Below are positions 25,113 to 58,947 of a stretch of 64,000 nucleotides of DNA, in pieces. A program made the translations under genes and the position numbers. The notes under the pieces were generated by a model, which saw only the letters and a list, made by a program, of their open reading frames with translations, was not told where the DNA came from and did not search any database. The stretch's first letter is position 1; each line of letters begins with the position of its first letter. Source of the DNA: an uncultured Bacteroidota bacterium. Lineage in GTDB: Bacteria; Bacteroidota; Ignavibacteria; UBA10030; UBA6906. Location of the stretch: positions 21,018 through 85,017 of the forward strand of contig CAWEKI010000001.1 in NCBI GenBank assembly GCA_963809695.1, read 5' to 3'.

Positions 25113-25117
25113 CGACG

Positions 25118-33643: not shown

Positions 33644-33663
33644 TCTGAAGATCAAGGAAGCTC

Positions 33664-33702
33664 ATGTAAGGCATGGCACTTGGTCATGCCTTACATTTTG
33701 TT
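33664..33702 (+). terminator. rho-independent terminator after the GRE gene
   Basis: Perfect 12-bp inverted repeat atgtaaggcatg ... catgccttacat followed by tttgtt. Confidence 0.6.
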
Positions 33703-33704
33703 CC

Positions 33705-34045
33705 GTCAACACCCTTTCCTGTCCCGCCCAAGCGGGAGCCTTAGTTTCGGGGTTGACTAAGAAGCAGCAGTAGTCATTTCGGGAGAGCGAAGCGACGAAG
33801 CAGTCTCTTATCGGCTCTGGGGTTGCTTCGCCCCGCCAAGGCGGGGCTCGCAGTGACAGGAAAGCAGTCAGATTGTGCGCCAGAGGTTCATCCCTTGGGG
33901 GCTTCGGGCCCACAGGTCCGGTCCTTCGGACCGAGACTCTCGGTCTGAAAGGCCGGAGCAGGCTCGCAATGACAGTTGGAGGACTTTTGGGTCACTCCCG
34001 AAGAGTGTGATTTGAGCGCAACCGAACAGAAGTTAATCAAGGAGG
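33705..34045 (+). promoter_or_regulatory. repeat- and hairpin-rich structured leader upstream of the PFK-like gene (possible cis-regulatory RNA or clustered palindromic elements)
   Basis: Multiple GC-rich hairpins (tcccgc-ccaa-gcggga; ccccgcc-aa-ggcgggg; ggtcc-ttc-ggacc; ccgaga-c-tctcgg) and a twice-repeated ggctcgcaRtgacag motif (33845, 33961). Confidence 0.35.
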
Positions 34046-34051
34046 CACATT

Positions 34052-35224: not shown

Positions 35225-35236
35225 GGAGGAAGAATT

Positions 35237-36211: not shown

Positions 36212-36250
36212 GTTCGTGTTCGAGGTCGCAATCTAAGAACCGGGGTATTT

Positions 36251-37390: not shown

Positions 37391-37449
37391 CGTGCGGGCC
37401 GGACCGGGAGAGCTCGATATCTCCCGAATCCTAAATTGATTTTCGATAA

Positions 37450-38202: not shown

Positions 38203-38249
38203 CCGGCTGCAGTAAGTCAACAGGGAACGCGAAATTCAGGAGGATATTC

Positions 38250-42076: not shown

Positions 42077-42089
42077 TCGGCAACCGTGA

Positions 42090-42869
42090 ATGACAATGGA
42101 TAGCAGCACGCACAGGGCATTCCCGTGGCAGGTATACCTCTCAGAACTCATTGGTACAGCAGCCCTCCTTCTGGTGGGGCTGTCGCTGGTGATTGCCATG
42201 TTTGGAAGTGGCAGCCCGATCCCCGGGCTCATGCCGAACGATGCTCTGCGCCGGGCAATCACGGGATTTCTGTTCGGCACAACAGGGGCACTCATCGCGC
42301 TCTCTCCGGTCGGCAAGAGAAGCGGCGCACACATCAACCCGGTGGTCACCCTCGGATTCCGGCTCGCAGGAAAACTCGAATTGAATGTGGCGCTGGGGTA
42401 CATCGCTGCACAGCTTCTCGGCGGGATACTGGGCTGTATCCCACTTCTCCTCTGGGGAACGACCGGCCTCAGTGTTGCCTACGGAGCTACGTTACCCGGA
42501 GTGGGGTACAGTACATTGACCGTTGTGATGGGTGAAGTGGCGACGACCTTTGCGATGGTCTCCCTCCTGGTGCTGTTCCTGGCATTCCGGAAGATCCGCC
42601 GATTCACACCGGCCCTTTTTCCGCCCCTCTATTCGATCATGGTCTGGGCCGAGTCGCCGATATCGGGTACGAGTACCAATCCGGCCAGGAGCCTCGGTCC
42701 TGCTGTGGTCTCAGGACAGTGGGAGGGGTGGTGGATCTACTGGGTAGGACCGGTGCTCGGGGCACTTCTGGCGATGCTTGCGTGCAGTTTTCTTGTCAAG
42801 AAGATTGAGGTGGCAAAGCTTTATCATTTCGACAGTGATCGTGACAGACTATTTCGAAAATCTCAATAA
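42090..42869 (+). CDS. MIP-family channel (aquaporin / aquaglyceroporin)
   Basis: Two half-helix motifs: HINPVVT (NPV variant of the first NPA) and TNPARSLGPA (second NPA). Six TM segments. Confidence 0.8.
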   Translation: MTMDSSTHRAFPWQVYLSELIGTAALLLVGLSLVIAMFGSGSPIPGLMPNDALRRAITGFLFGTTGALIALSPVGKRSGAHINPVVTLGFRLAGKLELNVALGYIAAQLLGGILGCIPLLLWGTTGLSVAYGATLPGVGYSTLTVVMGEVATTFAMVSLLVLFLAFRKIRRFTPALFPPLYSIMVWAESPISGTSTNPARSLGPAVVSGQWEGWWIYWVGPVLGALLAMLACSFLVKKIEVAKLYHFDSDRDRLFRKSQ

Positions 42870-42881
42870 GGAGAATGTCCC

Positions 42882-44630: not shown

Positions 44631-45569
44631 GTGATGCCCGAACCCGAGGTCCCGCAGGAAACACCCGACTTCTCACTGGTCCTGGGTGGTCCACTGTTTC
44701 AGCTGTTCCGACGGACACATCTGTCCGGAGCTGGATTGGAGCTGATGAAGCGGCGGATCGTGTTCATCGCTCTTTTCGCGTGGCTGCCGTTGCTGGTGTT
44801 GGCCTTACTGAGTGGGCGCGCTTTGGGTGGCGGAGTCAAAATCCCGTTCTTGTTCGACATCGAGACACATGCTCGATTCCTGATCGCACTGCCGGTATTA
44901 ATTGCAGCGGAAGTGATCGTCCACCGTCATATCCGACCGGTGGTTCAACAGTTCATGGCGCGGCGCATGATCGTCGCGGAGCAAGTTCCGAAATTTCATG
45001 CGGACATCAAGTCGGCAATGCGAGTGCGCAACTCGCCTGTGGTGGAATTGGCATTGCTTGTTTTCGTTTACACGCTAGGACATTGGACTTGGCGGGACGG
45101 GGTTGCAATGGAACAGGCAAGTTGGTATGCAATGCCGGACGGGAAGAGCCTCAATCTCACCTATGCCGGTTACTGGTTGGCCTTCGTCAGCGTACCGCTG
45201 TTTCAGTTTATCCTGTTGCGCTGGTATTTGCGGCTTTTGACCTGGTCCTGGCTCTTGTGGCGTATCTCGAAATTGAGCCTGCGGCTCACCCCTACTCACC
45301 CGGATCGGGCCGGCGGGCTGGGCTTTCTGGGTGATAGTGCCCACGCCTTCGCGCCGATCCTCTTTGCCCAGGGCGCACTTCTTGCAGGGTTGATCGCCAG
45401 CCGGATCTGCTACGACGGTCAGGCCTTGATGACATTCAAGGGAGAGGCCTTAGGGTTCGTGATCGTTTTTGTTCTCTTCATCCTGGGCCCACTCACGGTC
45501 TTTTCCGGCCATCTCGCACGAGCAAAGCGAAAGGGCTTGCGCGAGTACGGAATGCTCGCCAGCCGCTAG
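44631..45569 (+). CDS. hypothetical polytopic membrane protein, apparently frameshifted near 45560 (continues as the 45569-45823 frame)
   Basis: Several hydrophobic helices. The reading frame ends ...EYGMLASR* while the adjacent frame continues ...VQEFDDKWVQGG... with more TM-like sequence. This suggests a frameshift (pseudogene or sequencing error). Confidence 0.4.
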   Translation: MMPEPEVPQETPDFSLVLGGPLFQLFRRTHLSGAGLELMKRRIVFIALFAWLPLLVLALLSGRALGGGVKIPFLFDIETHARFLIALPVLIAAEVIVHRHIRPVVQQFMARRMIVAEQVPKFHADIKSAMRVRNSPVVELALLVFVYTLGHWTWRDGVAMEQASWYAMPDGKSLNLTYAGYWLAFVSVPLFQFILLRWYLRLLTWSWLLWRISKLSLRLTPTHPDRAGGLGFLGDSAHAFAPILFAQGALLAGLIASRICYDGQALMTFKGEALGFVIVFVLFILGPLTVFSGHLARAKRKGLREYGMLASR

Positions 45570-46133
45570 TGCAGGAATTTGATGATAAGTGGGTCCAGGG
45601 GGGTGCATCCGGTACTGAGGAACTCCTGGGGAGCGGCGATATTCAATCACTGGCCGATCTGGGAAACAGTATTGCGACCGTGCGTGGGATGCGCCTCGTG
45701 CCTTTCGGACCAAATGCCGTGATAACGCTGGCAGTAGTGACCGTGGCGCCTCTGCTCCCCCTGACGCTGACAATCTTCTCAGCTGAGGAGTTGCTGCTCA
45801 AGGTGATCCAGATACTATTGTGATCCAGCAAGTAGGGGGAAATATACACCGCCATCAAAGAAGCGGGAGATTTCGTTCAGACGCCCAAATTCTGCCTTAT
45901 CCGGTAGGGGAGGGTGATCGTCCGGACGCATCGTGGACACCTATTACAAATGCTCCAAGCTGAGCCGGAATCTTGTCCACCTGTTATCTGCAGCGATCGG
46001 CAATCTTCTGCCTCGGCAAAAGAAGACAATCATTTGTAGGGCGTCCTCGGAATAAATTCGGGCACTCAGAAAATTCAGACCGCGCATCTCTCACAGCGCG
46101 AGATTTGAACCACTTCATCACACGTCGGTGGAT

Positions 46134-46162
46134 AAAATCATGCGCCCTTATTGCGCCCTTGG
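46134..46162 (+). repeat. 29-bp exact repeat aaaatcatgcgcccttattgcgcccttgg (second copy at 61476-61504)
   Basis: Exact match between two noncoding regions; the motif itself contains a direct repeat gcgccctt x2. Confidence 0.7.
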
Positions 46163-46477
46163 TGCCGCCTTCTTCAGTGTTGATCATCTGCAATCACTTC
46201 AACGTCAAGACTTTTTTTGTTTCCTGCCGTTCCTTGACTGGACCGCGCTGCATGTTGGTGGTGGATGACGATCAGTTCGGTCGTGGATCCATGATGCATT
46301 CCTCTCATTGCGCCGGAACCTTGTCCACCTGTTATATGGCCTCCTCGGCTGACACATGGGGGGTCGGCTCCGGGAGATCACGGCTCGTGGTGCATCCTAG
46401 AAAGGGCCCCGAGCGAGCGAATTCTAGTGAGCGAGCCGAGGGACCTCGGAACCATGAATTTCACATGAGAACGAGTA

Positions 46478-46512
46478 GACTCGCCCCACCAAAACACAAG
46501 GTGGGGCGAGTC
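46478..46512 (+). repeat. hairpin repeat gactcgccccacc-loop-ggtggggcgagtc (homologous copy at 62535-62572, where it is followed by a T-run, terminator-like)
   Basis: Same 10-12 bp stem sequence in both copies, followed in both by ttggtgggg. Confidence 0.6.
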
Positions 46513-46670
46513 TATTTCCTTGGTGGGGAAGATGCGACTCGCTCAGGGCATTGCCCCGACCTTTGCCTCCGGGGAACTGGGCGAGCGGGAGGAGGGGTTG
46601 CGGCCTAAGCCCCTTTCGTTCTTCCGCGGGCCCGCCAAGCATTTGTAGCTACAGGAGCTCCCCGCAACTT

Positions 46671-46811
46671 ATAGACATTCCCCATTTTCCAGGAAAACTC
46701 TGTGGGTTTTCCTGAACACCTGGTGGAAGCAGGTTCCTGGAACCATCCTGGAACCTTCCTGGAACGTTCCTGGAACGATCTTGGAGCCACGTGCAAATGG
46801 GGAATGTCCAT
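46671..46811. mobile_element. MITE-like 141-bp element with ~15-bp terminal inverted repeats and 8-bp target-site duplication
   Basis: TIRs atagacattccccattt / aaatggggaatgtccat. Flanked by the direct repeat cgcaactt (46663-46670 and 46812-46819). Interior carries tandem tcctggaac repeats (46728-46780). Confidence 0.45.
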
Positions 46812-46942
46812 CGCAACTTCTTTTGCATCTCAAATGGATTTTGGATAATTTCCTGTTGACGCAATTTCTCGGGCGCCGAATCAGTCCCGGCAGCACCTCG
46901 GTAGCCCTTGCGATACCGACAACCCCATCATCTGAAGCAAGT

Positions 46943-48922
46943 ATGACAACATTCGCTCGGAGCGAGCCAGAGGAACTTACTTCAAGCCAGCTGAAGTTCG
47001 AGATGGTTCTGGCCGACATCGCTGCCCGATTCCTGAGAATGATCCCGCAGGATGTAAACGAAGAGATCGACCGCGCACTCGGGCAGATTCGCGAGTTTTT
47101 TGAATCCAACATGTGTGGCTTGTTCCGCGTCAACCCTCAGGCCGACGAGCTCATGCTGTCACACGTGGCTGTCACTGAAGCCATACGCATGATTCCGGAT
47201 AAAACGAACTATGCTCCTCGGTCTCCGTGGAGATTTCCCAAGGTGGTCCGGGGAGAAGTCGTTCTGGTGAACAACCTCGATGAGCTTCCGAAGGAAGCAG
47301 ATGTGGACCGGCGCTCAAGTGAGTCGCTGGGGATTCAAGCCTACTTGAGCATACCTGTACCAGTTGGAGGCGTCACGGCCTATCTTCTCCATCTGGCATT
47401 TACGCGGCCGGGACCAGCGTGGCTCGCTACGTATATTCCCAGATTACGCGTGCTTGCGGAAGTTCTGGTCACCGCACTGGAACGTAACAGGGAAATCGCA
47501 GCCCGGGAGGAGACGGAGGCCCGTCTCGAACTCGCGACGGGAATGGCCGGCGCCGGGATGTGGGATCTCGACCTGAGGACCAACGCCTTTTGGGGGACGG
47601 CCCGGGCGAGGGAACTCTACGGGATTGTCGAGGGCGAGAAGGTGAGCCTTGAGACGTTGTACAGCAAGATTCACGCTGATGACATCGAACGACTGAAGCG
47701 GGACCTGGAAGAATCCATGCAGACGGGGGCTTCCCTGGTAACCGAGTACCGAGTTGTACTGCCAGATGGAGGAATTCGATGGGTTGCGGTGCGGGGGGCC
47801 CGTTCTCCAAAACCCGTCCATGGCGGCGAGCACATCCTCGGCGTGTCCGTGGACGTCACGGAGCGGAAGAGCGCGGAAGAAAATACCAGACGTTCGCTTG
47901 AAGAGATCAAACGGCTGAAGGAGATGCTCGAAGTCGAGGCTCGCTTTCTTCGCAAGGAGATAGGCCTTTCGCACTCCCACCTTGACATCGTCGGCAAGAG
48001 CGAAGCAATCAGGATTGTGTTGCACCAGATCGAACAGGTGGCGCCGACTGACTCCACGGTCTTGATCGGGGGGGAGACCGGGACAGGGAAAGAGTTGGTG
48101 GCACGTGCGATTCATTCGCTGGGCAAGAGGAAAGACCGATTAATGGTCAAGGTCGATTGTGCATCCCTTCCGACCACGCTTATCGAAAGCGAGCTCTTTG
48201 GCCGGGAGCGCGGTGCCTACACCGGGGCGATTACCAAACAAGTTGGCCGTTTCCAGATTGCCGATAAGGGGACTGTCTTCCTGGATGAGATCGCTGAGCT
48301 GCCGAGAGAGACGCAGTCCAAGCTCCTCCGGGTCCTGCAGGACGGTTGTTTTGAAATTCTCGGCAGTCCCAAAACGGTGCTTGTGGATGTGCGCGTCATT
48401 GCGGCGACAAACCGTGATCTAGCCAAAGAAGTCAAGGAAGGTCGCTTTCGGGAGGATCTCTACTACCGGCTCAACGTTTTTCCCATCCAGGTTCCTCCGC
48501 TCAGGGAGCGAAAAGAGGACATTCCGATGCTGGTATGGCATTTTGTAGAATTCTTTGCAAAGGAAATGCGCAAGGACATCCGGCGCATCCCCAGGGAGAC
48601 TATGGATGCCCTGGTGAACTACCCCTGGCCGGGGAACGTCCGGGAGATGAAAAACCTCATCGAACAAGGATTCATTATCAGTTCGGATGATCGGTTAACC
48701 GTTCGATTGCCCCAATCCCCAATTGCCGCCTCACGTTCTCCTCAGACGCTCGAGGCGATCGAACGACAGCACATTCTGGATATCCTGAATCAGCAACAGT
48801 GGCGCATCAAGGGGGCAGGAGGGGCCGCCGCGCTACTCGGCATGAATCCTTCCAGCCTCTACTCGAAGATGAAACGCCTCGGTATTCCCACCAAACACAA
48901 AAAAGACGATAGTACAACCTAG
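46943..48922 (+). CDS. sigma54-dependent transcriptional activator with GAF/PAS domains (paralog of 28515-30575)
   Basis: GETGTGKE, ESELFGRERGAYT, C-terminal HTH. Colinear with the first EBP. ATG 46943 preferred over ORF-track start 46781. Confidence 0.85.
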   Translation: MTTFARSEPEELTSSQLKFEMVLADIAARFLRMIPQDVNEEIDRALGQIREFFESNMCGLFRVNPQADELMLSHVAVTEAIRMIPDKTNYAPRSPWRFPKVVRGEVVLVNNLDELPKEADVDRRSSESLGIQAYLSIPVPVGGVTAYLLHLAFTRPGPAWLATYIPRLRVLAEVLVTALERNREIAAREETEARLELATGMAGAGMWDLDLRTNAFWGTARARELYGIVEGEKVSLETLYSKIHADDIERLKRDLEESMQTGASLVTEYRVVLPDGGIRWVAVRGARSPKPVHGGEHILGVSVDVTERKSAEENTRRSLEEIKRLKEMLEVEARFLRKEIGLSHSHLDIVGKSEAIRIVLHQIEQVAPTDSTVLIGGETGTGKELVARAIHSLGKRKDRLMVKVDCASLPTTLIESELFGRERGAYTGAITKQVGRFQIADKGTVFLDEIAELPRETQSKLLRVLQDGCFEILGSPKTVLVDVRVIAATNRDLAKEVKEGRFREDLYYRLNVFPIQVPPLRERKEDIPMLVWHFVEFFAKEMRKDIRRIPRETMDALVNYPWPGNVREMKNLIEQGFIISSDDRLTVRLPQSPIAASRSPQTLEAIERQHILDILNQQQWRIKGAGGAAALLGMNPSSLYSKMKRLGIPTKHKKDDSTT

Positions 48923-49034
48923 GGACGGTATTAAACCCTTTCCCGGGCACGATCCAATTCTCAATTGTTCCAGCAATCGCCCCAACCTGTTGCTCCGCTG
49001 CAGATTCTCGATAACTCCTCCCATATCTGCAATG

Positions 49035-49049
49035 TGGCACGCGCAATGC
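49035..49049 (+). promoter_or_regulatory. candidate sigma54 promoter upstream of ABM gene 2
   Basis: TGGCAC-gcgca-aTGCg; GG/GC spacing 12; ~14 nt upstream of the ABM start codon (nearly leaderless). Confidence 0.45.
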
Positions 49050-49062
49050 GTACTTCTCAGGC

Positions 49063-49410
49063 ATGTTCCTCACCATCGTACGCATTTTTCCTCCTACTGC
49101 TGAACTAGAGGCGATCCGGGCTTACCTGTCGGGTTTCCTGGGACCAACCGGCGTTCAACCAGGTTGCCTGGGTTGCACGTTGGCTGAGGAGTCTGACCCG
49201 GAGGCGCTCGTCTATACGGAAACGTGGCAGACGGAGGAAGAATTCTTGTGTCGACTGCAATCAGGGAAATTCGCGAAGATACTTGAGATTTCCGAGATGT
49301 CCGTTGGGAGACCCGATGTCTGGATTTGCGAAGTCATCAATCAACAAGGGTTGGAGTTTGTCGATAAACTCAGAAAGGATCGCCCGGAGGAGACGCAATC
49401 AACGACATGA
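49063..49410 (+). CDS. ABM-domain protein (paralog of 30781-31170)
   Basis: ...VQPGCLGCTLAEESDPEALVYTETWQTEEEFLCRLQSGKF... matches the ABM consensus. Confidence 0.6.
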   Translation: MFLTIVRIFPPTAELEAIRAYLSGFLGPTGVQPGCLGCTLAEESDPEALVYTETWQTEEEFLCRLQSGKFAKILEISEMSVGRPDVWICEVINQQGLEFVDKLRKDRPEETQSTT

Positions 49411-50141
49411 GAGAGAAGACAATATTGACGATGTCACTGGCGGCGGGAATGTTGCTGCATGCCATGCCGGTGATTGCTCAGGAACAATCAAACGCTTGGA
49501 GGTTCCGGGTGACCCCTTACTTTGTGGGTGCGGCCATGAACGGCGACCTCACCATCCATGGCCGTACTGCGACGGTGGATGTCGGCTTTGACAAGATCCT
49601 GGAGAACCTCAAGTTTGCGGCTATGCTGCAACTTCAGGCACAGAAAGGCCGATGGAGCATCGGGTTGGATGGGATTTATATGGGGCTTGGTGCCACGGCA
49701 AGTAAGCCAGAGGCAGATGTCACCATGGATCAGTGGATGGTAGAGCTTTCGGGAGCCTATCAACTTGCACCCGGGATCGAGATGCTGGCTGGGGTGCGCT
49801 ACAATGCCTTGTCCAGCTCGATCACGTTTGAAAATCCCCGCCTCGCTGAGAAAAGTGGGAATGTGGATTGGTTCGATCCGGTAGTGGGCACGCGCCTGAC
49901 GGCTCGCCTGAGCACTCAGTGGACGCTGCGTGGCCGGGCAGATATCGGCGGATTTAATGTCGGGTCGTACATGACGTGGCAGGCTGCGGCCTATGTCGAT
50001 TTTCGGGCCAGTGATCTCATTGCTATCGTCGGGGGCTATCGTGCGTTGAGCAATAACTTTGAGACCGGCAGTGGAGACGAACTGTTTCGATATGACGTGA
50101 CCGTGTCCGGTCCAACGCTGGGAGTGTCGTTTGCCTTTTAA
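49407..50141 (+). CDS. outer-membrane beta-barrel protein
   Basis: Signal peptide; amphipathic strands; C-terminal ...LGVSFAF (terminal Phe). Confidence 0.5.
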   Translation: MREKTILTMSLAAGMLLHAMPVIAQEQSNAWRFRVTPYFVGAAMNGDLTIHGRTATVDVGFDKILENLKFAAMLQLQAQKGRWSIGLDGIYMGLGATASKPEADVTMDQWMVELSGAYQLAPGIEMLAGVRYNALSSSITFENPRLAEKSGNVDWFDPVVGTRLTARLSTQWTLRGRADIGGFNVGSYMTWQAAAYVDFRASDLIAIVGGYRALSNNFETGSGDELFRYDVTVSGPTLGVSFAF

Positions 50142-50186
50142 TAATCGAATTCAGCAATCGTGATCATCATACCAAAGGAGGCCCAC

Positions 50187-50717
50187 ATGATACGTAATCT
50201 CACCGCAATTCTTGCAGCTCTTGCTATCTGTCCGCTTCTGGCCTTCGCTCAGGGAGAACCAGGGTTCAGCAAGATGTCTCTCGGCGCAAACTTTGAGGTC
50301 TCTCTTCCCATGGGGGATTTCTCCGACTGGGCTGGCACCGGCTATGGCGGCAATGTCCGGTATCAGTATGGAACCGACTCGCGCACCGTCTTTACCGCCA
50401 CGGCGGGCTACCTTGCCTGGACGACAAAGGAGATGGCCGCCAATACCTCCTCCCAGCCCAAGGCCTTCAACATTTTTCTCGGGGGCAAATACTACCTGGC
50501 GCCGGGTTTCTACGGCAGCCTGGAAGGGGGACTGTATTTCATGACGTTCACCTACACCGGCAATGTGATCGGTGCAAAGGGGAATCAGACCTATTTCATG
50601 TTGCCCATCGGCCTGGGATTCCAGAAATCCGGTTTCGAGCTCGGCGTCCGCTATATGCTGTACTACCATGGCTTCAACTCATTCTCGTTCACTGCGGGGT
50701 ACAACTTCGCCCTGTAA
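50187..50717 (+). CDS. small outer-membrane beta-barrel protein (parent copy of the pseudogene at 57832-58160)
   Basis: SD aaggagg then ATG 50187; signal peptide MIRNLTAILAALAICPLLAFAQ; KAFNIFLGGKYY motif shared with the fragment at 58060. Confidence 0.5.
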   Translation: MIRNLTAILAALAICPLLAFAQGEPGFSKMSLGANFEVSLPMGDFSDWAGTGYGGNVRYQYGTDSRTVFTATAGYLAWTTKEMAANTSSQPKAFNIFLGGKYYLAPGFYGSLEGGLYFMTFTYTGNVIGAKGNQTYFMLPIGLGFQKSGFELGVRYMLYYHGFNSFSFTAGYNFAL

Positions 50718-50792
50718 GACGGCCGCTGCACTGCTCATGCTTCCTGTGGCTTTGCTGTTGAAATGCATCGATCGTTTTGAGGAGACAATACC

Positions 50793-52478
50793 ATGAAAGT
50801 CATTATAGTTGGTGGAGTGGCAGGCGGAGCCTCCTGTGCGGCGCGTCTGCGCAGATTGGATGAGAAGGCTGAAATCGTGCTCGTGGAACGCGGACCGTAT
50901 GTCTCATACGCGAATTGCGGCCTTCCGTACCATGTCGGGGGTTCGATAGAACAGGAATCCAGCCTCCTGGTGGCGACGGAACAGATGTTCCGTGCAGTAT
51001 TCGCGATCGATTGCAGGACAAGCTGCGAAGTAATCGGCATTTCAGCCAAAGAGAAAACAGTCAAGCTCAAGAATCACGCAAATGGTGAAGTGACCACTGA
51101 GAAATATGACAAACTGGTGCTTTCCCCCGGGGCGGCGCCGATCCGTCCGCCGCTTCCGGGGATTGATCTCCCGGGAATATTTTCTGTAAGAACAGTACCT
51201 GATGCGAGACATATGCGCGAATGGTTAGACCGTGATATATTAAATACCGGAATGAATGAATACAGCGGCGTTAACACAATTGCAAAACCCCTCAATGCAG
51301 TTGTCGTTGGAGGTGGATTCATAGGTCTGGAGATGGTTGAAAACTTAGTGCATCGCGGACTTAATGTAATATTGGTTGAAAAGTTAGATCAGGTTATGCC
51401 GCCGCTCGATCCTGAAATGGCTCTTGTAGTAAAACGTTATATGGAAAGACACGGCGTTAAAGTTGAACTTAATGATGGCGTTGCAGGATTTCGTAAATCT
51501 GATGATGGAATGATTGAAGTACGTACGGAATCAGGAAAAGTTTACCCTGCAGAAATTGTTATCCTTGCAATCGGTGTTAAGCCCGAAACAGAATTAGCGA
51601 AGATGGCAGGAATCGAACTCGGTAAAAGAGGAGGATTTAAAGTTGATGATCAGATGCGGACTTCAAACGCAGATATCTTTGCTGTTGGTGATGCAGTTGA
51701 AGTAAAAGATTTCGTTACCGGAGAAATGACTCTTATTCCCCTTGCAGGACCGGCAAACCGGCAAGGAAGAATTGTCGCTGATGTTCTTTGCGGTCGTAAT
51801 TCGCGCTATCGTGGTACACAGGGGACCTCAATCTGCAAAATATTTGATGCGGCAATTTCACAAACAGGTGTGAGTGAAAAAACACTTACAAGACTTGGTG
51901 TGACCGACTATGAAAAGATTTACACATATCCGAACTCGCACGCGGGATATTATCCCGGCGCAAAAATACTTGTTATAAAAACTCTGTTCCGCAAATCCGA
52001 CGGGAAAGTGCTTGGTGCCCAGGTGCTTGGTGAAGAGGGTGTTCCCAAAAGAATTGACTCTTTTGCAATGGCCATTCAGATGGGCTGCACTATTTACGAT
52101 CTGGAAGAATCAGAACTCTGTTACGCCCCGCCATTTGGTAGTGCCAAAGACCCGGTTAACTTTGCAGGCATGGTTGCAGGAGATATTCTGCGGGACGATA
52201 TGCCGATCATCCACTGGGATACGCTTGGTAACGGGTTCATTTTAGATGTGCGTAATCCGCAAGAACTTGAAGTAGAGTCTGTTCCCGGCGCTGTGAATAT
52301 CCCTTTGCCGCAACTTCGGTCCCGTCTGGGAGAACTTCCTCGTGATCGAGAAATCCATGTCCTTTGCCGTTCAGCTCAGCGAGCCTATTATGCCACTCGC
52401 ATACTTCTGCAAAATGGATTCACAGCAAAGAATATTTCCGGCGGAATGCTTGCGCGTTCACATCGTGCGGTGAGTTAG
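50793..52478 (+). CDS. CoADR-RHD flavoprotein, copy 2 (mosaic: high-GC 5' ~390 bp nearly identical to copy 1, remainder low-GC)
   Basis: Same motifs as copy 1. First ~390 nt are near-identical to 42882-43270 at nucleotide level. From ~51180 codon usage shifts to A/T-rich (tta, aaa, gat). Confidence 0.8.
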   Translation: MKVIIVGGVAGGASCAARLRRLDEKAEIVLVERGPYVSYANCGLPYHVGGSIEQESSLLVATEQMFRAVFAIDCRTSCEVIGISAKEKTVKLKNHANGEVTTEKYDKLVLSPGAAPIRPPLPGIDLPGIFSVRTVPDARHMREWLDRDILNTGMNEYSGVNTIAKPLNAVVVGGGFIGLEMVENLVHRGLNVILVEKLDQVMPPLDPEMALVVKRYMERHGVKVELNDGVAGFRKSDDGMIEVRTESGKVYPAEIVILAIGVKPETELAKMAGIELGKRGGFKVDDQMRTSNADIFAVGDAVEVKDFVTGEMTLIPLAGPANRQGRIVADVLCGRNSRYRGTQGTSICKIFDAAISQTGVSEKTLTRLGVTDYEKIYTYPNSHAGYYPGAKILVIKTLFRKSDGKVLGAQVLGEEGVPKRIDSFAMAIQMGCTIYDLEESELCYAPPFGSAKDPVNFAGMVAGDILRDDMPIIHWDTLGNGFILDVRNPQELEVESVPGAVNIPLPQLRSRLGELPRDREIHVLCRSAQRAYYATRILLQNGFTAKNISGGMLARSHRAVS

Positions 52479-52492
52479 AAAGGAGATCTTTC

Positions 52493-53371
52493 ATGAACGA
52501 AATCTTGGAGTTTTGTCAGTCTATATTTAATCCACTGGTAATTGTATTTACTGTTTCAAACCTCTTAAGCATGGGCCTTCAGGTTAACCTGGGCAAGATG
52601 TTCAAAAAAATTGGAGATCTGAAGTTCCTGGGACTTACGTTCGGATACGGCTGGGTGGTAGGCCCCGCTGTCGCTTATCTGATCACCTTGTTAATTCCAC
52701 TGGATTCAACATATGTAATCGTGTTGTTCATCGGTAGTCTGGCCCCGTGTGCACCATTTCTCCCACCGCTTCTCCCCAAAGCGCATGGAGACGTTGTCTT
52801 CGCAGGAGCCTTCATACCGGTTGCGGCGATCGGCACATCCGTGCTAATGCCACTATTTGCACCGTTCCTGGCAAAGGGCATAGAATTGAGCGTAATGTCG
52901 CTCCTGAAACCGCTCTTTATGACGGTGCTCGTACCTTTGCTGATTGGCGCTTTAATCAAGACTTATGCTAGTAAAGTGGTCGACAAAATCTTCCAGCCTG
53001 TAAAGAAACTGGCGGGCTTGGCTACGTTGTTGACAATTGTTTTCTGTCTTTTGCTCTATTACAAACAGATGTGGGCTACTGCCGGCAGCTTTGCAATGCT
53101 TTCGCTGACCATTTTTATGGTTGTGATGGCACTGCTCTCCTTTTATTTCGGATTCGGCCTTAAGCGGGGTGAGAGAATAGTCCTGTCACTGGGAATGGGC
53201 ACACGGAACATAGCCGCTGTCTTGATAGGAGTTCTTGCTATTCCGGATGTAAAACCAAATATGGTGGCGATGGTTATCATTTGGACGTTGTGGTCTTTCA
53301 TCCTCAGCGTAGTTGTTGCCCCGCTTATGGGTAAAAAGGATGGCAAGGCAGGCGAGGAAGTTAAAGCATGA
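52493..53371 (+). CDS. bile acid:sodium symporter (BASS/SBF)-like transporter
   Basis: ~290 aa polytopic membrane protein with BASS-like helix pattern. ATG 52493 sits after the upstream stop; the ORF-track start 52364 overlaps the CoADR gene. Low-GC. Confidence 0.5.
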   Translation: MNEILEFCQSIFNPLVIVFTVSNLLSMGLQVNLGKMFKKIGDLKFLGLTFGYGWVVGPAVAYLITLLIPLDSTYVIVLFIGSLAPCAPFLPPLLPKAHGDVVFAGAFIPVAAIGTSVLMPLFAPFLAKGIELSVMSLLKPLFMTVLVPLLIGALIKTYASKVVDKIFQPVKKLAGLATLLTIVFCLLLYYKQMWATAGSFAMLSLTIFMVVMALLSFYFGFGLKRGERIVLSLGMGTRNIAAVLIGVLAIPDVKPNMVAMVIIWTLWSFILSVVVAPLMGKKDGKAGEEVKA

Positions 53372-53456
53372 GCTCACCCGGTAAACAATGAAGACCATGA
53401 AAAGCTTATTAATGATTCGCCACGAAGGTAGAAGCGTATGAGGGCACAGGATATTT

Positions 53457-53770
53457 TTGGCATTGCTGCAATCCTCTACTGCGCCTATGTTACCCATTTT
53501 GATCAGGAAAGCCATGGCAGATATGGACGTCTCCGCCGCTATGATGCCCTTAGCGGTGGTAGGGACGGTGGTGTTGATGCCACTGATCGCACCCATGCTG
53601 ATTTCCAGGGTATCGGTCAGCAGTTTCGCGCTCGCCAAACAACTTGTTCTCACGGTGCTGCTGCCGCTTGTAGTCGGCGTTGTTATTAAGGTATATGCGA
53701 TCAAATTGGCAGATAAAATTTTGCCCTATTTCAAAAGACTCGCAGGCCTTACTTGTATTCAGGTGCAACT
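53457..53770 (+). pseudogene. duplicated fragment of the BASS-like gene (C-terminal half), fused in frame to the next gene
   Basis: ...AMMPLAVVGTVVLMPLIAPML...LLPLVVGVVIKVYAIKLADKILPYFKRLAGL parallels residues ~150-230 of the 52493 protein (...FIPVAAIGTSVLMPLFAPFLA...LVPLLIGALIKTYASKVVDKIFQPVKKLAGL). Confidence 0.45.
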
Positions 53771-53774
53771 AACA

Positions 53775-54581
53775 ATGAAACTAATCATCCTGTTGATCAG
53801 TATTTTCATTACCGTTTCTGCATTAGCACAGGAGGAACAAAAACCGGCATCAAATGATCCAGCAGAAATTGCCAAAGCACTGGCAAATCCTATTGGAGCA
53901 CTAATTAGTGTGCCCTTTCAGAATAATATGGACATAGGAATCGGAGAAACCAATGGTTCGCGAAACACACTTAACTTTCAACCAATCATTCCGTTTAGCC
54001 TAAGTGAAAAATTCAGTCTGATTACAAGATATATTCTACCTGTAATAGCACAATATGACATTACAGGCGAAGGCACTCAGCAAACTGGACTGGCTGATGC
54101 ACTGGTGAGTGGATGGATTTCTAATGCTGTAGTAAAAGATGGATTTGTATGGGGATTGGGCTCTGCATTTCTAATTCCCACTGCAACCAATGATATGTTA
54201 GGCACAACAAAGTTTGGTATTGGCCCAACTGCGATAGCTCTAAAACAAGCGAATGGCTGGACATATGGCGCGTTGATAAATCAAGTCTGGTCAGTTGCCG
54301 GCGATGAAAACAGAGCGGATGTTAACCAGATGTATTTGCAGCCTTTTGTAACTTATAACTGGAAAAGTGGAACGGGATTAACCGTGAACGCGGAATTAAC
54401 TCAAAACTGGCAGGCTAGTAGTACAACAGCTTTTATCAATATAGTGGCAGGGGGATTATTAAAGTTCGGTGAACAATTAATTCAATTCCAAGTTGGTCCA
54501 CGGCTACAGGTAGCCGCCCCTGAAGGAGGCAGATCTGATTTTGGTGTTAGGACTGCAGTGATATTTGTTTTTCCGAAGTAA
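53775..54581 (+). CDS. secreted / outer-membrane protein of unknown function
   Basis: Signal peptide MKLIILLISIFITVSALAQE; beta-rich; ends ...VIFVFPK. Lowest-GC gene in the window. Confidence 0.4.
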   Translation: MKLIILLISIFITVSALAQEEQKPASNDPAEIAKALANPIGALISVPFQNNMDIGIGETNGSRNTLNFQPIIPFSLSEKFSLITRYILPVIAQYDITGEGTQQTGLADALVSGWISNAVVKDGFVWGLGSAFLIPTATNDMLGTTKFGIGPTAIALKQANGWTYGALINQVWSVAGDENRADVNQMYLQPFVTYNWKSGTGLTVNAELTQNWQASSTTAFINIVAGGLLKFGEQLIQFQVGPRLQVAAPEGGRSDFGVRTAVIFVFPK

Positions 54582-54603
54582 TGAATATATATCTTAAACA
54601 CCT

Positions 54604-56406
54604 ATGAAAATGAATTCAATAGATGAAGCAGAAGGCAAAACGGGAAAGGCATCCCTGATGGGAGTGCTTAGGGGTTATTTGCCCATCCTTGATTGGGGAG
54701 CAAAATACACCAGCAAGACATTTACAAACGACATGATCGTTGCGCTGATTGTAACGATGATGTTGATCCCGCAGTCGCTGGCCTATGCGTTGCTTGCGGG
54801 GCTGCCGGCAGAGGTCGGACTGTATGCCTCGATGGCGCCGCTCGTGCTCTATGCGATCTTCGGCACATCCCGCACGCTCGCGGTCGGTCCCGTGGCGGTG
54901 GCCAGCCTCATGACCGCGGCAGCAGCCGGACAGCTCGCCTCCCAGGGAACACCGGAATATCTGGGGGCTGCCATCGCGCTCGCTATGGTCTCAGGTTTGT
55001 TGCTGCTCGCAATGGGGTTTCTGAAGCTTGGGTTTCTTGCAAATTTCCTCAGCCACCCCGTCATCTCGGGATTCATTACAGCTTCCGGTATTCAGATCGC
55101 TGCAGGTCAGCTCGGACCCGTTCTCGGGATACATGTTGAAGGAGAAAGTTTTCTGGATATTGTTATTTCGTTATGGCACACTATTACTCACATCCATCTC
55201 GCAACCGCAGCCATCGGTATCGGCTCTCTCATCTTTCTCTTCTGGGTTCGCAGCGGACTGAAGCCGCTTCTGGTCCACTTCGGACTGGGTGCGCGTGTCT
55301 CCGACATACTGGTTAAAGTTGGTCCTGTTGTGGCCATCATTGCAGCTATTCTCATAGTGTGGACCTTTGGTCTGTCTGATAAAGGGGTAAAAATTGTCGG
55401 AACGGTGCCCGGTGGTTTACCAAAACTTGCCATGCCGCCGATGGATATGGCACTCTGGATGAAGATCCTCGTGCCGGCGCTTCTGATCTCCATAATAGGC
55501 TATGTTGAGTCAATCTCGGTTGCTCTTACTCTTGCTGCCAAACGTCGTCATCGCGTCGACCCCGACCAGGAGTTGATCGCGCTTGGCATGTCCAACGTCG
55601 GTGCGGCCCTGTCGGGCGGATTTCCGGTGACGGGCGGCTTCGCTCGCTCGGTGGTAAACTTTGAAGCTGGCGCTGAGACGCCCGCTGCCGGGGCATTCAC
55701 GGCGGTCGGCATCGCTCTCACCACGATGTTTCTTACTCCGCTTCTGTTCTTTCTGCCGAACGCAACGCTCGCCGCCACCATTATCGTTGCGGTCCTGTCG
55801 CTGGTGAATCTCAGCGCGCTCAAGCTCACGTGGCACTATTCGTGGACCGATGGCGCGGCGATGGCCGCCACTATCCTCCTCACCTTGGTCGAGGGCGTGG
55901 AAGCGGGGCTGTTGGCGGGCGTGGGTCTCGCCATCTTCCTCCATCTTTACCAAACGTCGAAGCCGCATGTGGCGGTCGTGGGCCAGATCCCGGGCACCAT
56001 GAATTTCCGCAACGTGGCCCGGCATACGGTGGTGACTGATCCCGAGTTTCTATCGCTCCGGGTGGACGCCAGTCTCTATTTCCCGAACGCACGCTTCATC
56101 GAGGACTACATCAACGGGGCGGTTGCGGCCAACCCGACTGTCCGCCACGTCATCCTTGAATGCGCGGCGGTGAATGCGATTGACGCCTCGGCGCTGGAAA
56201 GCCTCGAGGCGATTAACCACCGGCTCAAGGATGGCGGAATTACCCTCCACCTCTCCGAGGTAAAGGGCCCAATCATGGACCGCCTGAAGCGGTCGCATTT
56301 CCTGGAAGAGCTGACCGGCAAAGTCCACCTTACCCAATATGATGCCGTTTCCAGTATCAAACCAGATTTGGCGTCGCATACGTTGGAAGCAAAGAGACCT
56401 TCATGA
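54604..56406 (+). CDS. SulP-family anion transporter with C-terminal STAS domain
   Basis: 600 aa; SulP TM core; C-terminal STAS region (...VILECAAVNAIDASALESLEAINHRLKDGGITLHLSEVKGP...). Confidence 0.85.
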   Translation: MKMNSIDEAEGKTGKASLMGVLRGYLPILDWGAKYTSKTFTNDMIVALIVTMMLIPQSLAYALLAGLPAEVGLYASMAPLVLYAIFGTSRTLAVGPVAVASLMTAAAAGQLASQGTPEYLGAAIALAMVSGLLLLAMGFLKLGFLANFLSHPVISGFITASGIQIAAGQLGPVLGIHVEGESFLDIVISLWHTITHIHLATAAIGIGSLIFLFWVRSGLKPLLVHFGLGARVSDILVKVGPVVAIIAAILIVWTFGLSDKGVKIVGTVPGGLPKLAMPPMDMALWMKILVPALLISIIGYVESISVALTLAAKRRHRVDPDQELIALGMSNVGAALSGGFPVTGGFARSVVNFEAGAETPAAGAFTAVGIALTTMFLTPLLFFLPNATLAATIIVAVLSLVNLSALKLTWHYSWTDGAAMAATILLTLVEGVEAGLLAGVGLAIFLHLYQTSKPHVAVVGQIPGTMNFRNVARHTVVTDPEFLSLRVDASLYFPNARFIEDYINGAVAANPTVRHVILECAAVNAIDASALESLEAINHRLKDGGITLHLSEVKGPIMDRLKRSHFLEELTGKVHLTQYDAVSSIKPDLASHTLEAKRPS

Positions 56407-56586
56407 AAGGAGACAAGAGACATTCAAGAGGATAGGGCAGTCCCTGTAACTTGACTTCCAAGTCGTCACACCATAGAACAGTTTTATCCACGCGATCGGT
56501 CACGGTTGAAGAGAAACCACCATCACTTCCGGTCCGGTGAGCGTCAACACAACATATCGCCACACATGTGAAAAGGAGACATTATC

Positions 56587-57774
56587 ATGACAGACGCAAA
56601 AGTGAAAGCGACGACGTTCGAAAATACGAAAATGAGCGTTGTCCCATTGAAATGGAACGAGGTGTATTACACCAACTGTCCGCTCGTGTCCGCCAGCAAT
56701 GTGGACCAGGAACTCGGCTGGACCAGAGAGGAGTTCAAGAAGATCGGCGTGAAGTACGCCTTTATGCGCTCCGCCCGCGAGAACGACTGGTACCCGCACT
56801 ACATCCATAACCTCGACAACCTCATTCGTTTCGGCGGTTTATTCCCGCCCATCCATGTTCACGCCGACATCCGCCGGACCAGGCTCCTGGGGGTGACGCA
56901 TGTATACGAAGGCGGCGTAATGCTGGTGCGCTCCAGGGACAAGATCTACCGGATGACCGATCTGAAAGGAAAGAAGATCGGCCTCTCGAAGAGCATGAAC
57001 ACCATCAAGACCGACTGGTGGCGCATCCAGGAGGAACAAGGCATCGAGCTTATGCTCATGATGAACGGCATGACCCGCAAGGACGTCGAGATCGTTGAGT
57101 TCCCCTACCCGGATGACTGGTACAACGATGCCAGGATGCTGGATCCTATGGAAAACCCATCTGAACTCTGGCTTAAGCGTGATCACAAGCGCGACCTGGC
57201 CTTCCGTCCATTGGAGACGGCCCTGGAAAAGGGCGTGGTCGATGCCGTCTATAGCCAAAGCAAAGTCTTGAGTGTTCTCTCAGAGGCAACAGGCAAGTTC
57301 AAGGCGATCGAGGACCTGTCCCGGTATCCGGACTGGACCCTGCAGGTGGCCAATGTCCCCGCCGTCATCACCTGTACGGACGTCATGGCCGAGAAACATC
57401 CCGAGCTGGTCGTCGCGTTCATGAAGGGCATGATTAAGGTGGGGCGCTGGGCCAACGAGAACAAGCACGCTGCGGCCGCGATCCTCGACAAGCAAACGTT
57501 CTATTTAGACGTCGAAGATACGTACAGAGGCATCAAAAACATCGACATGGTGCCCAACCTGTCGCCCCAGAACCTGGTCTCCGTTGAGATCGGGAAAGAC
57601 TTTATGCTGAGTCACGGATATATCAAGCACGACTTCGAAGTACAGAAGTGGGCCGCGCCGGAGTTCCTCGAACGGGCAGCCAGAGAATTGTTGGAAGAAC
57701 AATGGAAAAAGGTGACCACGTCAAAGCTTCCCGAGACGGCTTCGCCTCTGGCATCTGGAGATCGGCTCGGGTAG
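56587..57774 (+). CDS. SBP-fold protein (SsuA/NMT1/THI5-like), candidate DszB-type sulfinate desulfinase homolog
   Basis: No signal peptide. YTNCPLVSA (cf. DszB YSNCPVP with catalytic Cys), RFGGLFPPI (cf. RFGGEIPPL), RRTRLLGVT, C-terminal QKWAAPEFL (cf. DszB QWAAPEFL). Comparison is to DszB recalled from memory. Confidence 0.4.
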   Translation: MTDAKVKATTFENTKMSVVPLKWNEVYYTNCPLVSASNVDQELGWTREEFKKIGVKYAFMRSARENDWYPHYIHNLDNLIRFGGLFPPIHVHADIRRTRLLGVTHVYEGGVMLVRSRDKIYRMTDLKGKKIGLSKSMNTIKTDWWRIQEEQGIELMLMMNGMTRKDVEIVEFPYPDDWYNDARMLDPMENPSELWLKRDHKRDLAFRPLETALEKGVVDAVYSQSKVLSVLSEATGKFKAIEDLSRYPDWTLQVANVPAVITCTDVMAEKHPELVVAFMKGMIKVGRWANENKHAAAAILDKQTFYLDVEDTYRGIKNIDMVPNLSPQNLVSVEIGKDFMLSHGYIKHDFEVQKWAAPEFLERAARELLEEQWKKVTTSKLPETASPLASGDRLG

Positions 57775-57831
57775 TCAGGAGGAGACATGATGAGGAGGAA
57801 AACGATGAGACGGTCATGATGTGTTCTTGAG

Positions 57832-58160
57832 TTGTGTCTGTTGTTCATTCCCGTGATTACACTGACCCAGGGGGAGCCTGGGTGGGGCAAGATGTCCCTC
57901 GGCACGAGCGTCGAGCTGAATCTTCCTGTCGGAGATTTCAGCCCTATCGCAGGTACCGGGTACGGTGGCGACGTTCGATGCCGTATGGAAGCGATTCACG
58001 CACGGCCTTTGCGGCCACGGCAGAGTACCTTGTCTGGGGGAAGAAGGATTGGACGACCAATCCGTTGGTTCAGCCAAAGGCTTTCAACATTTTCCTCGGA
58101 GGGAAGTACTATTCAGATCGAGTGAATCCAAAGTCCAGGGAAATATCGTACAACCGGAGG
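57832..58160 (+). pseudogene. frameshifted, truncated copy of the OMP gene at 50187-50717
   Basis: Two overlapping frames each carry part of the OMP sequence (GEPGWGKMSLGTSVELNLPVGDFSPIAGTGYGGDVR / SRTAFAATAEYLVWGKKDWTTNPLVQPKAFNIFLGGKYY), then it terminates early. Confidence 0.55.
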
Positions 58161-58164
58161 ACGT

Positions 58165-58947
58165 ATGATGTACACGACCATGCTTGTGGGCGTGATTACA
58201 CTCGTCGGGCTCTTCCTGGGAATGATCATCTTCCTGGAGATCGGCCGCCGTCTCAGACAACGGTTATTGTCCCAGGATATCGAGAAGGTCAGCGGCGCTT
58301 TGAGCGTGGTGGAAGGGGCACTCTTCGGCTTGATGGGCCTGGTCATTGCGTTCACATTCTCGGGGGCGGCCTCTCGATTCGATGAGAGGCGGCATCTGAT
58401 AGTGGAGGAGGCCAATGACATCGGTACTGCGTACCTGCGTCTCGACGTACTTGCGAAAGAATCTCAGCCGCAGATTCGGGAGATGATGCGCCGGTACGTC
58501 GACGCCCGGATTCAAACCTACAGGGTATTGCCCGATTATGATGCGGCGCTCGTTCAGATCGCGAAGGCCAATGAAATCCAGCGGGAGATCTGGAATCACG
58601 CCGTCGGCGCTACGAGTGAAGCAACGAACCCGCAAGCGGCGATGATCCTCCTCCCTGCACTGAACGAAATGTTCGATATCGCGAACACACGTTTCTGGGC
58701 TGGCCAGATCCACCCCCCGCCGTTGATCTTTGGGCTCCTCGGCGTTCTCGCACTTGTCTGCGCACTCCTAGCCGGGTATGGCATGGCGGGAAGGACAACG
58801 CGGAGCTGGATCCATATCGTGGCCTTCGCCATCATCCTTACCCTCACTGTCTACGTCATCGTCGACATGGAGTACCCGCGTATGGGATTCATCCGAGTCG
58901 ACTCGTTTGACCAGGCCCTGGTGGACGTACGGGCAGCCATGCAGTGA
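58165..58947 (+). CDS. hypothetical membrane protein (TM segments at both termini)
   Basis: N- and C-terminal hydrophobic helices around a charged helical core; no motif recognised. Confidence 0.4.
   Translation: MMYTTMLVGVITLVGLFLGMIIFLEIGRRLRQRLLSQDIEKVSGALSVVEGALFGLMGLVIAFTFSGAASRFDERRHLIVEEANDIGTAYLRLDVLAKESQPQIREMMRRYVDARIQTYRVLPDYDAALVQIAKANEIQREIWNHAVGATSEATNPQAAMILLPALNEMFDIANTRFWAGQIHPPPLIFGLLGVLALVCALLAGYGMAGRTTRSWIHIVAFAIILTLTVYVIVDMEYPRMGFIRVDSFDQALVDVRAAMQ

Follow-up and report, generated by a model that had tools for sequence, protein, structure and literature searches.

A highly conserved clade of DszB-like proteins is linked to rhodaneses, CoADR-rhodanese reductases and anion carriers in bacteria and archaea

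To our knowledge, the desulfinase DszB is known only from a few actinobacteria, where it performs the slow final step in the aerobic desulfurization of fuel. Other described systems that share parts with the locus presented here are the flavoproteins of the CoADR-RHD, Npsr and CoAPR type (PDB 3ICR, 3NTA, 8A56), the cst/CstR regulons and the glycyl-radical sulfonate lyases. We analysed a stretch of 64,000 nucleotides from an uncultured Bacteroidota bacterium (Ignavibacteria, GTDB UBA10030, UBA6906; GenBank assembly GCA_963809695.1, contig CAWEKI010000001.1, positions 21,018 to 85,017 of the forward strand), which we call the window, and in particular the DszB-like protein of 395 amino acids that it encodes at 56587-57774. 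Judging from sequence comparison, this protein is probably a catalytic DszB-type enzyme in a module that handles sulfane sulfur and sulfite. It anchors a modular sulfur island under sigma-54 control and is part of an uncharacterized clade that stands out by its extreme conservation, its spread across both domains (including methanogens) and its new partnership with persulfide-handling enzymes. A literature search returned no paper on DszB-like proteins in such a context, also in combination with glycyl radical or peatland, and nothing relevant for glycyl radical together with phosphofructokinase and rhodanese. No such cluster is described in a 2026 review of sulfoquinovose catabolism. A paper on the benzene 'Magic cluster' turned out to be a false lead for the island.

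In a phmmer search against all PDB chains, DszB (2de2) was the sole real match of the 395-residue protein (E=1.2e-10). A profile of 72 homologs spans DszB residues 20-362 with E=1.9e-25, while the runner-up, SsuA, reached E=3e-6. A preliminary description of the window had named several DszB motifs, and every one of them is found in the HMMER alignment to 2de2: YTNCPLV of the window protein is paired with YSNCPVP, RFGGLFPP with RFGGEIPP and RTRLLGVT with RTRLLGIT, and WAAPEFL is identical in both. The active site of DszB is formed by Cys27, His60, Arg70 and Gly73 (PMC12168087), which align to Cys31, His71, Arg81 and Gly84. In an alignment of 24 sequences with relatives down to 26% identity, C31, H71, R81, G83 and G84 are among the sole invariant positions. 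Furthermore, in the tight clade around the window protein (206 sequences) C31, H71, H74, R81, G83, G84, D143 and C263 are 100% invariant and 228 of the 395 positions are at least 95% conserved. Both comparisons that the preliminary description had suggested, that of DszB with SsuA and that of the catalytic residues, are thus in favour of DszB.

The protein has a type-II periplasmic-binding-protein fold without an export signal. An AlphaFold2 model calculated from 27 close homologs had a pLDDT of 38; adding the sister family described below brought it to 89.6, with a pTM of 0.88. As had been noted before, there is no signal peptide; the N-terminus has neither a hydrophobic stretch nor a lipobox, and AGGAG, located 8 nt 5' of the start, is a good ribosome-binding site. 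Homology, fold and the invariant active-site residues establish the open reading frame (ORF) as encoding a predicted cofactor-free member of the DszB desulfinase superfamily, which in the source genome is cytoplasmic.

Automatic annotation gives a different picture. Names assigned by JGI and RefSeq are either [quoted passage not shown] or "2'-hydroxybiphenyl-2-sulfinate desulfinase", and an exact-sequence look-up of the window protein returned no record. Could it be an ordinary periplasmic binding protein of the SsuA/TauA type, or a true DszB of the 4S pathway that acts on hydroxybiphenyl-sulfinate? Apart from these names, such an assignment can draw on the weak matches to NMT1 and to NCBIfam SsuA_fam (TIGR01728). 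However, the SsuA_fam score is 59.2 bits against a cut-off of 163.5, the profile ranking places DszB first and the export signal is missing. There is no homolog of the Ssu permease, of DszA (LLM monooxygenase) or of DszC (acyl-CoA-dehydrogenase fold) within 10 kb in 84 related loci; identity to DszB is 21-24%, and the hosts are largely anaerobes. Score, profile ranking and missing neighbours contradict both identities, which we consider most improbable. The substrate of the DszB-like enzyme is probably not hydroxybiphenyl-sulfinate.

Next, we asked how widespread the clade is. We scanned one genome per GTDB species, a search that finds close relatives only, and found that at least 398 species-level genomes encode a relative of the window protein. 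The preliminary description had expected a desulfinase-type enzyme to be unusual in this lineage; this view has to be given up, as the clade occurs in more than 15 bacterial and archaeal phyla. The best 80 of the 398 relatives are 79-88% identical to the window protein. Among these 80, the bacterial hosts belong to Spirochaetota, Bacteroidota, Acidobacteriota, Nitrospiraceae, Desulfobacterota, Planctomycetota, Verrucomicrobiota, Chlamydiota, Chloroflexota, Ignavibacteriota, Gemmatimonadota, NC10, Actinomycetota and Alpha- and Gammaproteobacteria, and the archaeal hosts to Methanomassiliicoccaceae, Methanosarcinales, Methanomicrobiales and Methanobacteriaceae. Almost all hosts are metagenome-assembled genomes from peat, soil, groundwater and lakes, many with contigs of more than 1 Mb, and they are largely anaerobes of peat, soil and lake sediment. 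Since the scan is limited to close relatives, similar sequences are over-represented in the sample; even so, a real gap separates the clade from the sister family (at most 49% identity). A family search among 1.84 billion representatives at 50% identity gave 990 matches. The close relatives among them form, in essence, a single cluster of full-length sequences; those next in similarity at full length have 355-370 residues and are 26-48% identical.

The median pairwise identity between loci is 81% for the DszB-like protein. For its partners it is 82% (glycyl-radical activase), 80% (glycyl-radical enzyme), 74% (CoADR-RHD), 74% (PFK-family kinase, PFK), 60% (rhodanese), 41% (BASS-like carrier) and 31% (SulP). 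A recent horizontal sweep was considered as a source of the roughly 80% identity and rejected: at four-fold degenerate sites the median identity of the clade genes is 0.49, and the G+C content at third codon positions (GC3) ranges from 0.43 to 0.94 across hosts. Because of this low four-fold identity and wide GC3 range we infer, without a formal dN/dS test, that the clade genes are old residents under strong purifying selection, with saturated synonymous sites and an ameliorated composition.

The sister family is 38-49% identical to the clade. Its members, for example from Rhodovastum atsumiense, Mesorhizobium and Opitutaceae, have 355-365 residues and no signal peptide; they share the invariant residues including His74, have none of the insert, Cys263 or C-terminal tail of the clade, and show ordinary divergence. 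Operons for Ssu/Tau-type ABC importers carry their genes as one to six tandem copies, with the permease gene on one side and the ATPase gene on the other (for example in loci L091 and L093), which suggests an enzyme that acts on imported organosulfur anions. This arrangement of tandem cytoplasmic DszB-like paralogs within ABC importer operons is uncharacterized in its own right.

To describe the neighbourhood, all ORFs within 10 kb of the DszB-like gene were clustered in 84 loci including the window. Counts for rhodanese, CoADR-RHD and the glycyl-radical enzyme refer to the 83 non-window loci, those for the clustered families to all 84. Of the 58 loci flanked by 5 kb or more on either side, 52 encode a rhodanese-domain protein no more than 10 kb away. 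Co-directional neighbours are the single-domain rhodanese (47/83), CoADR-RHD (41/83), SulP (30/84) and the BASS-like carrier (25/84), followed by DUF202, the sigma-54 activator and a first family of outer-membrane proteins (17/84 each), PFK, a Zn-dehydrogenase and a nitroreductase-ferredoxin (14/84 each), the glycyl-radical enzyme (13/83), its activase (13/84), ABM and crotonase (12/84 each), a second outer-membrane family and MarC (10/84 each), and a GH63-like hydrolase and an arylsulfatase (9/84 each). Gene order is shuffled between lineages, and archaeal loci are pared down to the DszB-like gene and a rhodanese, to which a BASS carrier or CoADR-RHD may be added. The genomic link of the DszB-like gene to rhodanese, CoADR-RHD and anion carriers is statistically robust; its association with CoADR-RHD, SulP and BASS-like genes, for which the preliminary description had proposed a look at relatives, is seen again in dozens of unrelated genomes.

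By analogy with DszB, His71, Arg81 and the backbone of Gly84 would hold the -SO2(-) group of the substrate beside Cys31, and hydrolytic cleavage of the C-S bond would free sulfite (R-SO2- + H2O -> R-H + HSO3-). SulP, the BASS-like carriers and the outer-membrane barrels may carry the anionic substrate or the products. Sulfane sulfur would be handled by a rhodanese, in the window only by the rhodanese domain of CoADR-RHD, and CoADR-RHD would turn it into H2S with NAD(P)H. We infer a coupling of the DszB-like enzyme to sulfane-sulfur transfer and to persulfide reduction by CoADR-RHD in a route that would be independent of oxygen. The substrate is presumably a sulfinate, sulfonate, thiosulfonate or polysulfide; that the protein hardly varies speaks for a single small and polar sulfinate or thiosulfonate of universal occurrence. 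Conversion between sulfinates and thiosulfonates, and between sulfite and thiosulfate, is known from sulfurtransferases (PMC7545470). Among the possible couplings we regard a specific thiosulfonate relay as the likeliest, and we propose it tentatively: the rhodanese would take the sulfane sulfur off a thiosulfonate to leave a sulfinate (or would load sulfite to give thiosulfate), the DszB-like enzyme would desulfinate the resulting sulfinate, and the persulfide would be discharged by CoADR-RHD. The net gain would be sulfite and sulfide, that is, assimilable or respirable sulfur, without oxygen.

Several observations weigh against a DszB-type enzyme in such a module. The identity to DszB is low, as given above. 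The protein is not poor in sulfur, as its 395 residues include 17 Met and 2 Cys, and a sulfur-starvation signature (low Met/Cys) was rejected on this count of Met. Two of 120 close homologs (P0002 and P0094, 85-91% identical, with TRRDFLK and SKRDFIK) bear Tat-type signals, so that the cytoplasmic location is not universal, and some clade members are, from their sequence, probably exported in a folded state; a further 25 of the 120 begin at the same longer N-terminal offset. A simple DszB mechanism accounts neither for Cys263 nor for the C-terminal tail that ends in Gly; thiol-disulfide or persulfide chemistry could be involved. The radical and redox partners (the glycyl-radical enzyme, a benzoyl-CoA-reductase-like (BCR-like) system, and nitroreductase-ferredoxin with crotonase) are left unexplained by the thiosulfonate relay. 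Finally, of the organosulfur or polysulfide module put forward in the preliminary description, the link to CoADR-RHD, SulP and BASS-like carriers is supported, but the commonest partner elsewhere is not there: no stand-alone rhodanese was found in the window, and 57775-58164 has no homolog of any recurrent neighbour.

Those homologs with an N-terminal extension that were inspected bear a Cys-containing motif, for example TACSPGDLSK. Fusion to other domains was rejected, as longer database entries are due to mis-called starts or Tat signals.

The second cysteine deserves a closer look. All 206 clade members have Cys263, which is missing from both the sister family and DszB. The C-terminal tail (window 57682-57774, residues 366-395) is conserved as well, although modelled at low confidence; it ends in R-[LIV]-G, 205 of the 206 sequences retain this last Gly, and no E1-like adenylating enzyme was found near the gene. 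Potentially, Cys31 and Cys263 could act as a nucleophile or redox pair instead of Cys31 serving as proton donor. The protein would then be a transferase or reductase of sulfane sulfur or S-oxyanions that converts, for example, thiosulfate or thiosulfonate into sulfite and an enzyme persulfide or disulfide, to be recycled by rhodanese, CoA and CoADR-RHD. That its obligate partners are persulfide-handling proteins, and that the tail suggests docking of a partner, would fit this chemistry. On the other hand, the constellation of Cys, His, Arg and Gly is exactly the sulfinate-binding site of DszB, and the sister family retains all other residues without having Cys263, so we regard a two-cysteine mechanism as quite unlikely.

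Another question is whether the protein is catalytic at all. With its substrate-binding-protein fold it could be a cytoplasmic ligand-binding or regulatory protein, similar to the NrtA-like regulatory domain of CmpC/NrtC, that senses an anion and gates SulP/STAS or BASS-like carriers. SulP with its STAS domain does adjoin the gene here and in about a third of the loci, and SulP or SBF is found in 40 of the 83 related loci. However, these carriers are diverse (see the median identities above), the association with rhodanese is stronger than that with any carrier, the catalytic Cys, His and Arg are invariant throughout the superfamily and DszB is by far the closest relative. A role as a mere sensor is very unlikely in our view.

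The preferred reading, a catalytic DszB-type enzyme next to sulfur-transfer proteins, can also be compared with cultured carriers. The island is complete in Novipirellula artificiosorum, which has two DszB-like paralogs in tandem (clade protein WP_146531195.1), and plasmids of Rhizobium leguminosarum and R. johnstonii bear clade members with 69-76% identity (for example the Rhizobium protein WP_112908153.1). The sulfur-transfer neighbourhood holds in these cultured Novipirellula and Rhizobium too. In Rhizobium strain 22B the DszB-like gene neighbours a CoADR-RHD that is 67% identical to that of the window. In R. leguminosarum ATCC 14479 (locus L095 from plasmid NZ_CP030763.1, 7475-12903) it is set between two HGD-D (BcrBC-like) genes on one side and two ATPase genes of the BcrAD type on the other; next come a BASS carrier, two rhodaneses, a SulP that is 78% identical to the SulP of the window and a DUF4239 protein. 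The benzoyl-CoA-reductase-like set of four genes around the DszB-like gene was seen in this one genome only. The BCR-like ATP-driven radical system of ATCC 14479 occurs in an aerobic rhizobium.

Such neighbours lead to a further explanation, in which the DszB-like protein would catalyse the last step of a desulfonation that needs no oxygen: a sulfinate would be made from a sulfonate or another oxidized organosulfur compound by a low-potential or radical enzyme, the DszB-like enzyme would hydrolyse this sulfinate to sulfite, and rhodanese and CoADR-RHD would clear sulfite and sulfane by-products. Besides the gene order in ATCC 14479, it is in line with this that 13 of the 83 loci have the glycyl-radical enzyme, PFK and activase beside the gene, that 17 have nitroreductase-ferredoxin and/or crotonase, and that the glycyl-radical enzyme and the activase are conserved as strongly as the DszB-like protein. 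Anaerobic formation of toluene from toluenesulfonate is reported for a Clostridium (Denger et al. 1996); we know of no enzyme identified for this conversion. Still, in the majority of loci no such radical enzyme lies within 10 kb, the BCR-like arrangement was seen in one genome only, the reduction of a sulfonate to a sulfinate is without precedent in biology, and the glycyl-radical enzyme is redox-neutral and does not have the Glu of the known C-S-cleaving eliminases. We consider this explanation unlikely. In a wider sense, and with considerable doubt, the clade may represent the sulfite-releasing end of an unrecognized, oxygen-independent system of organosulfur mineralization that bacteria and archaea share in anoxic soils, peat and sediments. 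The sulfinate would be made by rhodanese together with radical or low-potential enzymes, namely a new glycyl-radical enzyme accompanied by a PFK-type kinase, an ATP-driven reductase of the BCR-like kind and a nitroreductase-ferredoxin; the DszB-like enzyme would cleave it and CoADR-RHD would reduce the sulfane sulfur.

In the window itself there are two paralogous units, 28179-44567 and 46781-57774, each headed by a sigma-54 activator (Table 1). Unit 1 consists of the activator, a -24/-12 element, ABM, the glycyl-radical enzyme, PFK, the activase, a 4Fe-4S protein, DUF2490, a GH63-like hydrolase, a Zn-dehydrogenase, a MIP channel and CoADR-RHD number 1; unit 2 consists of the activator, a -24/-12 element, ABM, two outer-membrane proteins, CoADR-RHD number 2, the BASS carrier, a BASS remnant, a third outer-membrane protein, SulP and the DszB-like gene. 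All genes named in the preliminary description are present, including the second CoADR-RHD by an aquaporin. While the link that it had seen within its sulfur-handling locus is real, the locus is larger than described, as it comprises a sigma-54-headed unit plus the upstream glycyl-radical unit. Overlooked were the activator, ABM and outer-membrane genes at the head of unit 2, the outer-membrane gene and BASS remnant between the BASS and SulP genes, and the whole glycyl-radical module. The pair of activator and ABM recurs in 12 loci, and a -24/-12 motif was observed 5' of 6 of 13 ABM genes where 0.023 are expected. Between the units, 44631-45569 (312 residues) and 45973-46608 (211 residues) have no Pfam or NCBIfam match.

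Table 1. Genes and promoter elements of the two units in the window, with one downstream gene (window coordinates)
Feature	Position	Strand	Remarks
Sigma-54 enhancer-binding activator number 1	28179-30575	+	GAF, PAS, AAA+
Sigma-54-type -24/-12 element, TGGCATGATTCTCGC	30691-30705	+	
ABM-domain protein	30781-31170	+	paralog of 49063-49410
Glycyl-radical enzyme, uncharacterized subfamily	31223-33643	+	glycine motif RVAGFSAFF
PFK-family kinase	34052-35224	+	always between glycyl-radical enzyme and activase
Glycyl-radical-enzyme activase (radical SAM)	35237-36211	+	best NCBIfam match HpsH type, 360 bits, below 430 cut-off
4Fe-4S dicluster protein	36251-37390	+	recurs in 7 loci
GH63/MGH1-like glycoside hydrolase	38250-41030	+	recurs in 9 loci
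Zn-dependent dehydrogenase, glucose-dehydrogenase type	41027-42076	+	recurs in 14 loci
MIP-family channel (aquaporin or glyceroporin)	42090-42869	+	
CoADR-rhodanese flavoprotein number 1	42882-44567	+	81% identical to number 2; directly after MIP gene
Sigma-54 enhancer-binding activator number 2	46781-48922	+	PAS, AAA+, HTH_8
Sigma-54-type -24/-12 element, TGGCACGCGCAATGC	49035-49049	+	
ABM-domain protein	49063-49410	+	first gene past sigma-54-type promoter
Outer-membrane protein	49407-50141	+	recurs in 17 related loci
Small outer-membrane beta-barrel-like protein	50160-50717	+	weak Pfam match, below cut-off
CoADR-rhodanese flavoprotein number 2, 561 aa	50793-52478	+	Pyr_redox_2, Pyr_redox_dim, Rhodanese domains
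BASS/SBF-like membrane carrier, 292 aa	52493-53371	+	PF01758 51 bits, above cut-off
Remnant of second BASS-like gene	about 53517-53759	+	46% identical to residues 99-179 of intact carrier; no own start
Outer-membrane protein, 268 aa	53775-54581	+	signal-like N-terminus MKLIILLISIFITVSALA; recurs in 10 related loci
SulP-family anion permease, C-terminal STAS	54604-56406	+	TIGR00815 424 bits vs cut-off 380; STAS 55 bits
DszB-like protein, 395 aa	56587-57774	+	no signal peptide; predicted catalytic Cys31, His71, Arg81, Gly84; C-terminus R-L-G
Bestrophin-like (former DUF4239) membrane protein	58165-58947	+	27% identical homolog after SulP in Rhizobium island

CoADR-RHD number 2 has a Pyr_redox_2 domain (207 bits) with a single redox Cys in VSYANCGLPY, in agreement with the motif SxxxCGLPY, and a rhodanese domain (PF00581, residues 480-552) with the Cys loop CRSAQR. 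Its closest solved relatives over the full length are the Bacillus anthracis CoADR-RHD 3icr (544 bits), Shewanella loihica Npsr 3nta and the Enterococcus faecalis CoA-persulfide reductase 8a56. As its score on TIGR03385 (451 bits) is under the equivalog cut-off of 579, the exact CoADR-RHD function is not automatically transferable. The ORF of the BASS-like carrier had been listed from 52364; the real start is the ATG at 52493, behind a GGAG site. With 30 bits on TIGR00841 against a cut-off of 326, the carrier is, by sequence, a distant superfamily member. The GC3 is 0.41 for CoADR-RHD number 2, which marks this gene as compositionally foreign, 0.54 for the BASS carrier and 0.33 for the outer-membrane gene that follows, while the flanking island genes have 0.6-0.76. 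Given the low GC3 and the BASS remnant, the segment 50793-54581 looks like a recent modular replacement from a donor with lower GC. In view of its distant homolog in the Rhizobium island, the Bestrophin-like gene downstream may be a member of the island, although the case is weak.

Upstream of the two units, 14578-20553 encodes a sensor histidine kinase of 1991 residues with multiple PAS and GAF domains. A group of SSF transporter, galactokinase and nucleotidyl-transferase genes lies at 23232-27176, and upstream of it, on the reverse strand at 22599-23996, there is an ORF whose C-terminal part holds an IS200-like (Y1 transposase) domain.

If the DszB-like proteins are indeed enzymes of this kind, desulfinase chemistry would be a mainstream and probably oxygen-independent part of microbial sulfur metabolism in anoxic habitats with low sulfate. 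A function would be gained for a conserved island that combines a glycyl-radical enzyme and PFK-type kinase, CoADR-RHD, rhodanese, SulP and BASS, and thousands of entries named "ABC transporter substrate-binding protein" would need re-annotation. Should the mineralization system exist, it would supply missing enzymology of anaerobic desulfonation and of part of the cryptic sulfur cycle of wetlands. With R. leguminosarum ATCC 14479 and N. artificiosorum as tractable hosts, the question is directly testable.

Compared with the described systems, the window flavoprotein, with its C-terminal rhodanese domain, is a clear member of the group of CoADR-RHD, Npsr and CoAPR (464-544 bits). Its combination with rhodaneses and an anion exporter is known from the cst/CstR regulons; in contrast to such reactive-sulfur operons, the island has no persulfide dioxygenase, SQR or CstR, and it is anchored by the DszB-like protein, controlled by sigma-54 and, in a subset of loci, accompanied by a glycyl-radical module. 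This module shares with the glycyl-radical sulfonate lyases (IslA/IseG, HpsG, HpfG) a glycyl-radical enzyme and an activase, the latter with the HpsH type as its best NCBIfam match (360 bits, below 430). The enzyme of the window, however, is far below every NCBIfam equivalog cut-off and closest to hydroxyproline dehydratase as solved relative (422 bits), is 75-98% identical between phyla and is always paired with a PFK-family kinase. While it has the RVxG glycine motif of the 1,2-eliminases (IslA, HpsG, HypD, CutC, GDH), its Cys loop GAC444VGS does not contain the Glu of their Cys-x-Glu motif.

The sister family differs from the clade in its ABC importer context, which takes the place of rhodanese and CoADR-RHD. 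With DszB/TdsB (EC 3.13.1.3; PDB 2DE2, 2DE3) the clade shares a type-II binding-protein fold that probably serves as a cytoplasmic enzyme, a full-length alignment, the residues Cys27, His60, Arg70 and Gly73 and the motifs YxNCP, RFGGxxPP, RTRLLGxT and WAAPEFL. Unlike DszB/TdsB, it has no dszA, dszC or dszD partners; it has Cys263, a His74 in the place of DszB Tyr63, an insert at about 173-210 and a conserved C-terminal tail of 30 residues. Its partners are rhodanese, CoADR-RHD and anion carriers, its hosts are mostly anaerobes and archaea, and its conservation is extreme.

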